Under the pieces are notes generated by a model. That model searched no databases and was not told where the DNA came from. It saw only the letters and a program-made list of their open reading frames with translations. This document shows positions 6,361-8,310 of a stretch of DNA of 32,000 nucleotides, piece after piece. Source of the DNA: Candidatus Paracaedimonas acanthamoebae (lineage in GTDB: Bacteria; Pseudomonadota; Alphaproteobacteria; Caedimonadales; Caedimonadaceae); the NCBI GenBank assembly GCA_000743035.1, contig CP008940.1:33131-65130 (forward strand), written 5' to 3'. The position numbers were made by a program, and so were the translations under genes. Within the stretch, counting starts at the first letter, position 1. Every line of letters begins with the position of its first letter.

Positions 6361-8310
6361 ATGATATACTTTACGCATAAATATTTATCTATTTTATTCT
6401 ATGTTTTTTGCTTAATCCAAGCCTTACCAATCGCAGCAAGCCAAGAACAAGAAGATCAACTTAAAATACTTAAGGCACCTTTTGTAGGTCAGAGAGGAAA
6501 ACAAAAAGCTCAAAGAGAGGAAGAAGGCGAGCCCAAAACGCTGGATTTCCACCATGGTTCTGCTAGTTCGAGTTCACTTGAAAGTATAGATATTTCTAAA
6601 GACGAGACGCAACTTCTCCGAGAACTGTCTCAAGAAATAGATTATACGTTCAAAAAGCCTGAGCTTTTACATTTAGCTTTAAGGCACAGTACCACTGATA
6701 TTGGACATTCCCATTCATCGCGAGGATATGAACGTCTAGAATTCTTAGGTGATGCTGTCTTAGAGCATGTAATACGAGAATTTTTATGGAAGGATTTTCC
6801 GAAACTTAATGCCAATCAATTATCAAAAATTTGTTCTACACTTACCTGCAATGAAACTCTTGCTCACTTATCAAAACACTTAAGACTTGCAGCAATATCT
6901 AAAAGATTAAAGCTATCCACCTTTACAAGAGAAGAAACCTTACAATCTCATCGACAAGCTGATTTTGTCGAATCCCTCATTGGCGCCATTTATAGCGATG
7001 GGGGAATAGAAGCAAGCCATAAATTTTTTAAGAGATATTATACAAGTGAAAGAGCTCCAACCTTTATTTCTAATATTATGAATTCTATCTCTCAAGAAGC
7101 TATTGAAGAAAGCCCGCTTTCTGCTTTATTCAGTAACAATCTTTATAAGAGAGCCTTTTATGAATTTTCTCAGTTTGAAGGCTTTCAATTTGTGGGGGAG
7201 GGCATCCTTAGATTTATTCTCCGTGATATGCTTTATCATCGCTTTCCTGAAAGCACAGAAGGGGAGCTTGTTCAAAAGTATAATAGTCTGATTTCTGCAG
7301 AAAGCTTATCTGCAATAGTAACGCAATATAACTTAAATCCTCACCTTAGTAAGCATTCTTTAAAATCATTTTTAGGCTTATTGTATCTTGATAAAGGGTT
7401 AGAATCAGTCCAAAACTTTATTCTTTGGCACTGGACAGGAGAAGAAGCTCCTAAAGCAGTTGTTGGTGCCCTTGAAAAAAGGATGGACTCAGTGCCTTCC
7501 CTTGAATCATCTTATTTTGTAAGCCTTCCTGCTCGTACCCAAATACAATTTACACCAAAAAATATTCTTCAAGAAGTTTTACAGATGCTGCGTGATGAGC
7601 CTTACTATTCTCATGAGAAAACAGGCCCAGATCATAATCCTACCTTTACAGTAACTGTTCAGTCTAAGTTAGAACACTTTAAGTCACTGCAAGGGCAGGC
7701 TGGTAGATTGCTTGACGCTCAACAAGAAGCAGCTCAAAAAGCTCTTGATATTTTATCTGTTAAAGTGTTGCTTACAACTATTGGAAACAAGGAAGACGCC
7801 GTTAAAAATGTGGGCTATTGCCTTAAGCTTTTAGAAGCTAAATTACGTTCCTTAGGCATTAGAGAATTTAGCTACCATAAAATTGCTAAAAGCCCTTATT
7901 TAAAGAACAATATTTATCGCTTTGAGCTTCAAGGGAAAAACGTTTATCCAACTTTTGGGGAAGACGAAACTATAGAAGCGGCCTTATTACAAGCGCTGGG
8001 CAAAGGGATATTCAAACTGTGTAGGGCAGAATATAAGAAAGCTGCTCACAGTGTAAAAGGGACTCATCAAGATATCCCTTTAGAAGATAACCGCCTTATA
8101 TTTTTAAAAAGTATTTTGGAAGAAACACTGAAGCCTCTAGGGTATGAAAACTTTACTTATATCCCTCATTCAAAAAGTAAAGAAAAAATACAGCCATATT
8201 TAGTATATGAGATTCAAGTCGGGAGTTTAAGACCGGCTAAAGGACAAGGGCTTACACCCCTTCAGGCTCAGATTAACGCATTACAAGGATTGCTGGATTC
8301 TATGGTCTAA
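6361..8310 (+). CDS. Signal-peptide protein with two tandem RNase III domains (first intact, second degenerate) and one clear plus two probable dsRNA-binding domains
   Basis: Start moved to ATG 6361: RBS AGGGGAG, and the leader is homologous to that of gene 1917..3731. Domain 1 has ERLEFLGDAVL (6730..) and ADFVESLIGAIYSDGG. Domain 2 has EGFQFVGEGIL and HSLKSFLGLLYLDKG (nt ~7120..7431). dsRBD: PKNILQEVLQ...GPDHNPTFTVTV...AQQEAAQKALDIL (~7552..7761). Two further alpha-beta-beta-beta-alpha-looking modules lie at ~7804..8022 and ~8086..8301. Confidence 0.85.
   Translation: MIYFTHKYLSILFYVFCLIQALPIAASQEQEDQLKILKAPFVGQRGKQKAQREEEGEPKTLDFHHGSASSSSLESIDISKDETQLLRELSQEIDYTFKKPELLHLALRHSTTDIGHSHSSRGYERLEFLGDAVLEHVIREFLWKDFPKLNANQLSKICSTLTCNETLAHLSKHLRLAAISKRLKLSTFTREETLQSHRQADFVESLIGAIYSDGGIEASHKFFKRYYTSERAPTFISNIMNSISQEAIEESPLSALFSNNLYKRAFYEFSQFEGFQFVGEGILRFILRDMLYHRFPESTEGELVQKYNSLISAESLSAIVTQYNLNPHLSKHSLKSFLGLLYLDKGLESVQNFILWHWTGEEAPKAVVGALEKRMDSVPSLESSYFVSLPARTQIQFTPKNILQEVLQMLRDEPYYSHEKTGPDHNPTFTVTVQSKLEHFKSLQGQAGRLLDAQQEAAQKALDILSVKVLLTTIGNKEDAVKNVGYCLKLLEAKLRSLGIREFSYHKIAKSPYLKNNIYRFELQGKNVYPTFGEDETIEAALLQALGKGIFKLCRAEYKKAAHSVKGTHQDIPLEDNRLIFLKSILEETLKPLGYENFTYIPHSKSKEKIQPYLVYEIQVGSLRPAKGQGLTPLQAQINALQGLLDSMV

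Follow-up and report, generated by a model that had tools for sequence, protein, structure and literature searches.

The window, as the whole 32-kb stretch of DNA analysed here is called, carries on its + strand a gene whose product joins two ribonuclease III (RNase III) domains in one chain. The first domain is catalytically complete, the second has lost its catalytic residues, and the pair stands between an export-type leader and three modules of dsRBD type (dsRBD, a domain that binds double-stranded RNA). The gene and its parts, as read from the open reading frame (ORF) list, the translation, Pfam and NCBIfam matches and AlphaFold2 (AF2) models, with the predicted local distance difference test (pLDDT) as the measure of model confidence, are as follows.

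6347..6352, + strand: Shine-Dalgarno sequence GGGGAG, 8 nt 5' of the ATG at 6361, by direct reading of the sequence.
6361..8310, + strand: complete coding sequence, 649 amino acids plus stop; tandem RNase III of the enzyme-pseudoenzyme kind with export-type leader and three dsRBD-type modules.
6361..6441, + strand: signal-peptide-like leader, residues 1-27, MIYFTHK / YLSILFYVFCLIQALPI / AAS-QEQ, by hydropathy (heuristic); AF2 helix at residues 2-21.
6442..6597, + strand: charged, low-complexity, disordered linker, residues 28-79; pLDDT below 50 for residues 23-75; length and sequence vary across the family.
6598..7056, + strand: RNase III domain 1, catalytically complete, residues 80-232, with E124, E127, G130, D131, D201 and E204; PF00636, 77.4 bits.
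7057..7137, + strand: inter-domain linker with one helix, residues 233-259; AF2 helix at residues 234-247.
7138..7446, + strand: RNase III domain 2, pseudo-catalytic, residues 260-362, with E273, Q276, G279, E280, H332 and K335; PF00636, 41.9 bits.
7543..7788, + strand: dsRBD 1, residues 395-476, with the GPDH loop present and the KKxAK-type basic motif weakened (GRLLDAQQ); PF00035, 44.1 bits; alpha-beta-beta-beta-alpha in AF2.
7798..8058, + strand: dsRBD-fold module 2, residues 480-566, without the usual RNA-contact motifs and with an acidic N-terminus of helix alpha2 (GEDETIEAA); no Pfam match; alpha-beta-beta-beta-alpha in AF2.
8074..8307, + strand: dsRBD-fold module 3, residues 572-649, degenerate in the window protein; assigned by hhalign and AF2 topology.

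The frame 6361-8310 is open throughout its 649 codons in the ORF list and the translation. An in-frame TTG lies upstream at 6307 with no Shine-Dalgarno sequence of this kind in front of it; because such a sequence precedes the ATG at 6361 only, the latter is taken as the start. All six peptide strings quoted in an earlier, sequence-only reading of this DNA are present in the translation from 6361, at residues 124, 200, 273, 332, 422 and 453.

That reading had proposed two RNase III domains in one bacterial chain, one complete and one pseudo-catalytic, and the profile scores bear it out. A Pfam scan of the whole protein finds two RNase III stretches and one dsRBD. Scanned singly, residues 91-239 (domain 1) reach 77.4 bits against PF00636 and residues 240-392 (domain 2) reach 41.9 bits (E 1.9e-10). 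Both pass the gathering cut-off of 27 bits; the second match covers profile positions 3-61 only, the first 60% of the model. In a profile-profile comparison (hhalign), the family profiles of domains 1 and 2 match with 99.2% probability (E 2.8e-19), and the alignment contains a deletion that leaves domain 2 about 19 residues shorter. Both domains belong to the RNase III superfamily (PF00636/PF14622), since each scores above the cut-off and AF2 gives an all-helical fold that matches RNase III structures. Its profile matches mark domain 2 as a true, though degenerate, RNase III domain.

Explicit alignment to E. coli RNase III reproduces exactly the residue mapping that had been claimed for both domains. 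E124, E127, G130, D131, D201 and E204 of domain 1 correspond to E38, E41, G44, D45, D114 and E117, and domain 2 has E273, Q276, G279, E280, H332 and K335 at the same positions. The metal-binding acidic set (E41, D45, D114, E117) is present in domain 1 (E127, D131, D201, E204) and missing from domain 2 (Q276, E280, H332, K335). Counts over 18 sequences, the window protein and its relatives, give the following pattern at each E. coli position.

E41: kept in 17 of 18 sequences in domain 1; Glu in 5 of 18 in domain 2.
D45: kept in 18 of 18 in domain 1; Asp in 2 of 18 in domain 2.
D114: kept in 16 of 18 in domain 1; Asp in 3 of 18 in domain 2.
E117: kept in 18 of 18 in domain 1; Glu in 0 of 18 in domain 2, where Lys stands in 10 and Arg in 1.
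G44, the signature Gly: 18 of 18 in domain 1 and 18 of 18 in domain 2.
E65: Glu in 0 of 18 in domain 1 and in 16 of 18 in domain 2.

A Glu-to-Lys exchange at E117 (E117K, or E110K) is the classic change that leaves RNase III able to bind but not to cleave. In the set of eukaryote-type tandem proteins used for comparison E117 is kept in 29-30 of 30 domains; the essential role of the equivalent Glu is reviewed in PMC3867540. The complementary pattern at E65 is what a fixed, non-equivalent domain pair would be expected to produce, a mechanistic meaning that we infer from the residues.

The same counts bear on whether the protein cuts RNA at all. It might be a non-catalytic RNA-binding protein like maize chloroplast RNC1, a tandem RNase III with inactive domains (PMC8708148), and one relative (P0066) has indeed lost E41 of domain 1. 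Both domains are dead in RNC1, however, whereas domain 1 is intact here, and its acidic set is complete in the window protein and in nearly all members of the family. This explanation is highly improbable.

Downstream of domain 2, one clear dsRBD and two further dsRBD-sized modules had been noted. Residues 393-479, scanned alone with the dsRBD model, score 44.1 bits against PF00035, and the last 170 residues have no Pfam match. AF2 places alpha-beta-beta-beta-alpha modules at residues 399-475, 484-565 and 576-648, and profile comparison by hhalign ties module 3 to dsRBD 1 (96.3%, E 1.7e-9) and module 2 to module 3 (98.0%, E 1.6e-13). Because model topology and profile comparison agree, all three C-terminal modules are read as dsRBD folds. 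Module 3 is canonical, with a GPDH loop and a basic helix, in two relatives (P0064 and P0066). Foldseek matches the C-terminal part to the multi-dsRBD partner proteins TRBP, Loqs-PB and R2D2 over 254-283 columns. What follows domain 2 differs from relative to relative: a triple dsRBD in the clade of the window protein, TPR repeats in two others (P0058, P0059), and in three more (P0005-7) basic disordered tails that end in a conserved Trp motif, FGF..PEDWKEWDK / TEWTEWGE.

The signal peptide of the sequence-only reading is likewise recovered, as a signal-peptide-like N-terminus judged by hydropathy and inspection. It consists of one Lys (K7), about 17 hydrophobic residues (residues 8-24) and then PIAAS/QEQ, and its maximum Kyte-Doolittle mean over 12 residues is 2.48. 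Among the 18 family members, 17 begin with a hydrophobic leader of this kind; the corresponding count for canonical rnc proteins is 3 out of 69. These features are consistent with the plan of a Sec signal (positively charged n-region, h-region of 10-20 hydrophobic residues, small residues at -3/-1, polar start of the mature chain), and the window protein may be exported by this pathway.

The tandem-RNase III layout is a very rare coherent family. A word-indexed search of 5.8 billion clusters returned no identical protein and seven relatives with the full architecture at 35-40% identity. When 1.84 billion representatives were searched exhaustively with a HMMER profile, 17 proved to belong to the family (E < 1e-67), and below these the scores fall sharply to generic RNase III. 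The ten clusters that were looked up contain one or two member sequences each, all from metagenomes or metagenome-assembled genomes (MAGs), and the taxonomic spread of the family rests on few contigs. Neither of the two outcomes named beforehand as counting against the sequence-only reading was obtained: domain 2 scores as RNase III, and an architecture common and annotated in many free-living bacteria is contradicted by 17 representatives among 1.84 billion and by the lack of a published description. A 2021 review describes bacterial enzymes as all of class I, with one nuclease domain in each monomer, and keeps the two-domain layout for Drosha and Dicer (PMC8708148). Full-text literature searches yielded no report of a tandem, secreted or pseudo-enzyme RNase III that occurs naturally in bacteria, and neither the symbiont genome paper (PMC5751055) nor a Holosporales review mentions such an RNase III. 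The architectural claims on the window protein can be held with high confidence.

Structural models suggest how the two domains are arranged. AF2 modelled the full chain (31-sequence alignment) with a pLDDT of 84.6 and a predicted template modelling score (pTM) of 0.74, showing two all-helical domains, and the two-domain core, residues 76-380 (18-sequence alignment), with a pLDDT of 88.3 and a pTM of 0.87. In a Foldseek search of the core model against the PDB, the query-normalised template modelling (TM) score is 0.68 for Drosha, 0.65 for Arabidopsis DCL3, 0.62 for mammalian Dicer and 0.55 for Giardia Dicer, and 0.39-0.44 for single-domain bacterial RNase III chains. The intramolecular pseudo-dimer with one active centre that had been expected is backed by the core pTM and the Drosha score, and domains 1 and 2 are predicted to pair within one chain, leaving a single active centre. 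The core is also matched by two giant-virus 'ribonuclease 3' models in BFVD, A0A3G5AGS1 (Satyrvirus) and A0A2H4UV56 (Bodo saltans virus), with TM 0.61-0.62 and identity of 12-15%; these models suggest that tandem RNase III domains may be encoded by some protist-infecting giant viruses as well.

Alternatively, domain 1 could form a homodimer as a canonical RNase III does and make staggered double cuts, with domain 2 serving as an accessory module that binds or measures RNA. All characterised bacterial RNase III enzymes are homodimers (PMC8708148), and AF2 was given no alternative partner. The invariance of the interface Gly in domain 2, in a domain whose catalytic residues are gone, as in the pseudoenzyme partner KREPB4, speaks against such a homodimer. 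So do the complementary loss and retention of E65, which fit a fixed heterotypic pair, and the match of the confidently modelled two-domain core to the intramolecular dimer of Drosha. Homodimerisation of domain 1 is regarded as unlikely.

The likeness to Drosha raises the question of origin, for which the sequence-only reading had offered internal duplication or transfer from a eukaryote to a bacterium. A neighbour-joining (NJ) tree was built with a BLOSUM-score distance and 200 bootstraps from 142 RNase III domains (family 18+18, bacterial 46, eukaryote-type tandem 30+30). Family domain 1 forms a single clade in 83% of replicates, family domain 2 in 80%. For 28 of the 30 tandem proteins, the a domains and the b domains form clades of their own and jointly one clade of 56, and both family domains fall outside these RIIIDa and RIIIDb clades of eukaryote type. 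Their nearest neighbours are bacterial in 93 of 166 replicates for domain 1 and in 122 of 160 for domain 2, and the two family domains are sisters in 10% of replicates only. The tree is a simple distance-based one on saturated sequences; at this divergence a Kimura-corrected distance gave not-a-number values (NaNs). Drosha ranks first in a sequence search of the PDB, and this rank was considered as a sign of eukaryotic origin and rejected: the score sums two matches of about 40 bits, in which both Drosha domains align to domain 1 of the query, whereas E. coli RNase III gives a single match of 60.9 bits and is the higher per domain. The bacterial equivalog model TIGR02191 is matched at 167.6 bits, just above its cut-off of 166.25, summed over three stretches.

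These results do not support transfer from a eukaryote or a literal kinship with Drosha or Dicer. Capture of part of a eukaryotic gene of Drosha/Dicer type, with the amoeba host or a giant virus as donor, would account for Drosha being the best match in both sequence and fold, for the family profile ranking eukaryote-type tandem proteins above canonical bacterial ones, and for the two giant-virus models that match both domains. These rankings, however, are inflated by the summing of two domains, the placement in the tree and the TIGR02191 match point to bacteria, and identity to the giant-virus models is low. No PAZ, helicase or other Dicer/Drosha domain is found by Pfam, a scan of viral contigs found no family member, and the gene has the same guanine-plus-cytosine (GC) content (0.34-0.37) as the rest of the 32-kb window. 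Capture is very unlikely. Internal duplication of an RNase III domain is plausible from the sequences, with fusion as the alternative, and the Drosha/Dicer likeness would reflect convergence from bacterial RNase III; this last reading is held with moderate confidence because the tree method is simple and the sequences are saturated.

Some more distant proteins vary the same theme. Two of them, P0122 and P0135 (locus L095 8001-9611), have a leader, an active and a dead RNase III domain and Arg at the E117 position, without a dsRBD. Their tails are rich in Ser, Gln and Lys and contain repeated xWP[SAP]L motifs. Some silencing suppressors hook Argonaute through Trp motifs in disordered tails; a role of the Trp motifs in the relatives' tails as Argonaute hooks is speculative. 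P0008 (locus L094 3844-4920), a protein of 358 residues without a leader, has the reverse order, a dead domain (RLAFLGNGIL ... LFKAIL) followed by an active domain and a dsRBD, and adjoins an integrase. This protein suggests that a fused enzyme-pseudoenzyme RNase III arose more than once in prokaryote-like contigs. P0068, with 2391 residues, combines an N-terminal ResIII helicase, two dsRBDs, two intact RNase III domains (ERLEFLGD twice) and weak Sigma70_r3 and LexA matches. In the NJ tree its nuclease domains fall with bacterial rnc; the protein may be a bacterial fusion that resembles Dicer, or a chimera produced by gene calling.

The surroundings of the gene in the window include the following features.

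1917-3731 and 3916-4620, - strand: two adjacent proteins with Smr (MutS2-type nuclease) domains, 604 and 234 amino acids, the rest of their sequence without assignment.
4741-5217, 9842-10120, 11602-12177 and 14167-15381, - strand: leader-bearing pentapeptide-repeat protein and 92-residue protein; two Sel1/TPR-repeat proteins.
5395-6049, - strand: VapB/VapC-like pair of antitoxin and PIN toxin, directly upstream of the tandem RNase III gene and divergent from it.
8535-9485, 10865-11254, 13392-14105, 15650-16681 and 17772-18761: transposases, namely IS110 twice, an IS4-type fragment, IS6 and YhgA-like.
12429-12854, - strand: second PIN-domain gene.
21205-32000: plasmid backbone with TraD-like protein, 2365-residue MobA-AAA_30-DUF7146-Toprim relaxase/helicase/primase, TraF-like protein and type IV coupling protein (T4CP).

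The backbone is 93% identical to ENA contig ERZ778024 NODE_410 (75.7 kb) and 90.6% identical to a 56-kb JGI contig. Both contigs continue directly past the point that matches the right end of the window into VirB4-B11 of a P-type type IV secretion system (T4SS). The coupling protein of the window shares 70% identity with one from a Paracaedimonas plasmid and 98% with one from metagenome contigs. The left 21 kb, where the tandem RNase III gene lies, has no counterpart in the 75.7-kb contig and contains IS110, IS6, IS4-fragment and YhgA transposases, VapBC and PIN genes, Sel1, the two Smr proteins and the secreted pentapeptide-repeat protein. Because this part is rich in insertion sequences (IS) and unmatched, and the backbone is matched to contigs with a T4SS, the gene is read from its sequence context as part of the accessory load of a T4SS plasmid, in a Paracaedimonas-like Holosporales symbiont of Acanthamoeba.

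For two transposases of the window, identical proteins exist in Ca. Paracaedimonas (Caedibacter) acanthamoebae, and one of these is annotated on a 65-kb plasmid. The same IS6 protein occurs in four copies in Ca. Paracaedimonas acanthamoebae and also in Ca. Paracaedibacter symbiosus, a distribution in keeping with recent exchange between symbionts that share an amoeba. When 25 kb of the window were searched at near identity against PLSDB plasmids, only an IS6 fragment matched, and an exact-sequence look-up of seven neighbouring window proteins returned no match. The window has a GC content of about 37%; the genome of Ca. Paracaedimonas acanthamoebae has 37.9% and comprises four plasmids (PMC5751055), and the bacterium lives in the cytoplasm of Acanthamoeba (PMC11909080).

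The VapBC pair and the second PIN gene are likely plasmid-maintenance modules, and the Smr proteins could be further cargo that targets nucleic acids. The leader-bearing small proteins and the Sel1/TPR proteins are typical host-interaction candidates of amoeba symbionts. From its plasmid location beside VapBC and other PIN genes, the tandem RNase III might be taken for a toxin against other bacteria, a module of plasmid addiction or part of a defence system. Yet VapBC lies on the opposite strand and is self-contained, no candidate immunity or other partner ORF was found downstream of the gene, and the neighbourhoods of relatives that were inspected hold no conserved partner gene. A defence-system reading was dropped, as PADLOC gave no match for the target or for six neighbours. 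A role of this kind is barely credible.

The relatives have neighbours of another sort. Some adjoin a patatin gene on a chromosomal contig, others, in an alphaproteobacterial MAG, adjoin F-box, subtilase and kinase genes, and further relatives adjoin LRR, Ank/Sel1, BRCT, integrase and IS66 genes; P0135 adjoins a 2399-residue relaxase-helicase-primase of the same type as that of the window. These neighbourhoods are typical of host-interaction genes in intracellular bacteria.

Together these observations point to a monomeric RNase III of the enzyme-pseudoenzyme kind that is exported, cuts a single strand per event and acts on host dsRNA, a chain of steps to which we assign, as a whole, a probability of roughly 45%. 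After Sec export and probable cleavage of the leader, the protein would be a monomer, in which domains 1 and 2 would rebuild the dimeric dsRNA-binding valley with one working centre. Double-stranded RNA would be bound through this valley and through dsRBD 1, which would supply affinity. Only the centre of domain 1 would hydrolyse, so that each binding event would cut one strand, as a nick or a strand-selective cut, and Lys or Arg at the dead centre may hold the second strand uncut. The degenerate modules 2 and 3 would most likely serve for contacts with proteins or for positioning; in relatives their place is taken by TPR repeats or by disordered tails that contain Trp.

RNase III acts as a dimer in which each active site cuts one strand (PMC3867540, PMC5648035), and heterodimers with one dead subunit nick dsRNA, as summarised in the same two papers. 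Nicking rather than double cutting is a sound inference by analogy with this published heterodimer work. The substrate would lie outside the bacterial cytoplasm and would most likely be host dsRNA, such as precursors of RNA interference (RNAi), small interfering RNA duplexes or structured host RNA, with amoebal RNA silencing as an attractive candidate target. Host dsRNA is a likely substrate because of the export leader, the mobile DNA, the life of the symbiont in the cytoplasm and the effector-like neighbours of the relatives. It appears the likeliest because the bacterium is free in the host cytoplasm and Holosporales release periplasmic proteins into the host, according to references given in PMC11909080. 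The Legionella effector LegK1 is reported to suppress host RNA silencing.

The same single-chain enzyme-pseudoenzyme could instead serve the bacterium itself: placed in the periplasm or anchored in a membrane, it would cut dsRNA to salvage nucleotides or to destroy RNA that gets into the envelope. Obligate symbionts depend on host nucleotides, as is generally known, the leader could be an uncleaved signal anchor formed by its AF2 helix, and no dedicated secretion signal or chaperone gene lies beside the gene. Scavenging, however, leaves three features unexplained: the conserved dead domain, the three dsRBD-type modules for which TPR repeats or Trp-motif tails can stand in, and the repeated location of such genes among conjugative elements and effector genes of eukaryote-like type. 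A purely bacterial use therefore has only an outside chance.

Several points weigh against an exported nuclease that cuts host dsRNA. The + strand around the gene showed nothing that resembles a promoter or a terminator. The exact protein, in the forms given by two alternative starts, is absent from a collection of about 15 billion proteins by exact look-up, and the closest relative in the word-indexed search is 40% identical, so that expression and function in the strain are read from sequence. The RNA affinity of the protein may be modest, as the basic motif of dsRBD 1 is weakened and modules 2 and 3 are without RNA-contact motifs. Sec export would leave the crossing of the outer membrane still to be explained. 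The pairing of the two domains is read from pTM and query-normalised TM-scores rather than from the geometry of the model, and a competing homodimer could not show up in an AF2 run on a monomer.

A bolder version of the exported-nuclease reading holds that protist-dwelling bacteria independently invented a live/dead single-chain RNase III, spread by conjugative elements and exported as a strand-selective nuclease that would disable or rewire host silencing, with variable C-terminal modules that dock onto different host RNA machineries. In this full form it is doubtful, though worth stating for what it would imply. If an exported, strand-selective and silencing-directed nuclease is confirmed, it would be, among RNase III enzymes, the first bacterial effector, and also a dsRNA nickase of natural origin. 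As it stands, the putatively exported RNase III on mobile DNA of amoeba symbionts offers a concrete case in which to test whether bacteria interfere with RNAi or the sensing of dsRNA in protists, for which the sole precedent found, LegK1, is indirect. The compact core of about 300 residues, probably monomeric with a single active site, may also provide a model for strand choice in asymmetric dimers, a question open for the trypanosome editosome, and a possible scaffold for a programmable dsRNA-nicking enzyme. The rule of one domain per chain for bacterial RNase III (PMC8708148) is broken by the tandem family, apparently by convergence.

Among known systems, Drosha and Dicer are the closest in shape: they too have two RNase III domains per chain and then a dsRBD, and the core model of the window protein, predicted to form an intramolecular dimer, overlays them with TM 0.68 and 0.62. 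Both of their domains are active, however, and make a staggered double cut, whereas domain 2 of the present family is dead in every member. By Pfam the window protein is without PAZ, helicase, platform and Pro/RS-rich regions. Its family lies outside RIIIDa and RIIIDb and is bacterial, and the gene is plasmid-borne with an export leader.

Canonical rnc (TIGR02191) and Mini-III are alike in another respect, since domain 1 and dsRBD 1 are rnc-like, the TIGR02191 score is above the cut-off and the nearest neighbours in the tree are bacterial. Canonical rnc has one RNase III domain and one dsRBD in about 220-250 residues, in contrast to two and three, respectively, in the 649 residues of the window protein. 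rnc is typically a cytoplasmic housekeeping gene in a lepB-rnc-era neighbourhood, whereas the window protein has an export-type leader and its gene lies among VapBC, pentapeptide-repeat, IS110 and Smr genes on a plasmid.

Functional precedents for parasites that blunt host RNA silencing come from LegK1 and from viral class I RNase III silencing suppressors, such as the RNase3 of sweet potato chlorotic stunt virus and the RNase III of ascoviruses. The viral suppressors are single-domain homodimers, viral models match the core weakly, and LegK1 is a kinase with Ago-binding Trp motifs and no nuclease. The three-dsRBD array, with distal modules lacking RNA-contact motifs, resembles TRBP, PACT, Loquacious and R2D2 at the level of fold only, and differs in being fused to the nuclease itself.

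In its presumed mode of action the protein comes closest to the trypanosome editosome endonucleases KREN1-3 with KREPB4/5, enzyme-pseudoenzyme pairs with one active site for which cutting of one strand has been proposed (PMC5648035, PMC3867540). The pseudo-domain of KREPB4 keeps the signature Gly and has lost the catalytic residues (PMC5648035), as has domain 2 of the family. The KREN and KREPB proteins are separate polypeptides of the 20S editosome with zinc-finger (ZnF) and PUF modules, whereas the window protein is a single chain with dsRBD-type modules, has no Pfam match to a ZnF or PUF domain and shows no sequence kinship to KREN or KREPB beyond the superfamily. Artificial E. coli heterodimers with one dead subunit show, in papers cited in PMC3867540 and PMC5648035 and as summarised there, that one site suffices and that dsRNA is nicked. 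The Aquifex E110K enzyme was crystallised with dsRNA (1rc7 and 1yyo are among the structural matches), and domain 2 has Lys or Arg at this position in 11 of 18 sequences. The E. coli heterodimers and mutants are laboratory constructs of a homodimeric cytoplasmic enzyme, whereas the asymmetry of this family is natural, fused and conserved. As far as can be told, the window protein would work like a fused KREN/KREPB4, is shaped like the core of Drosha or Dicer, and descends from bacterial RNase III.

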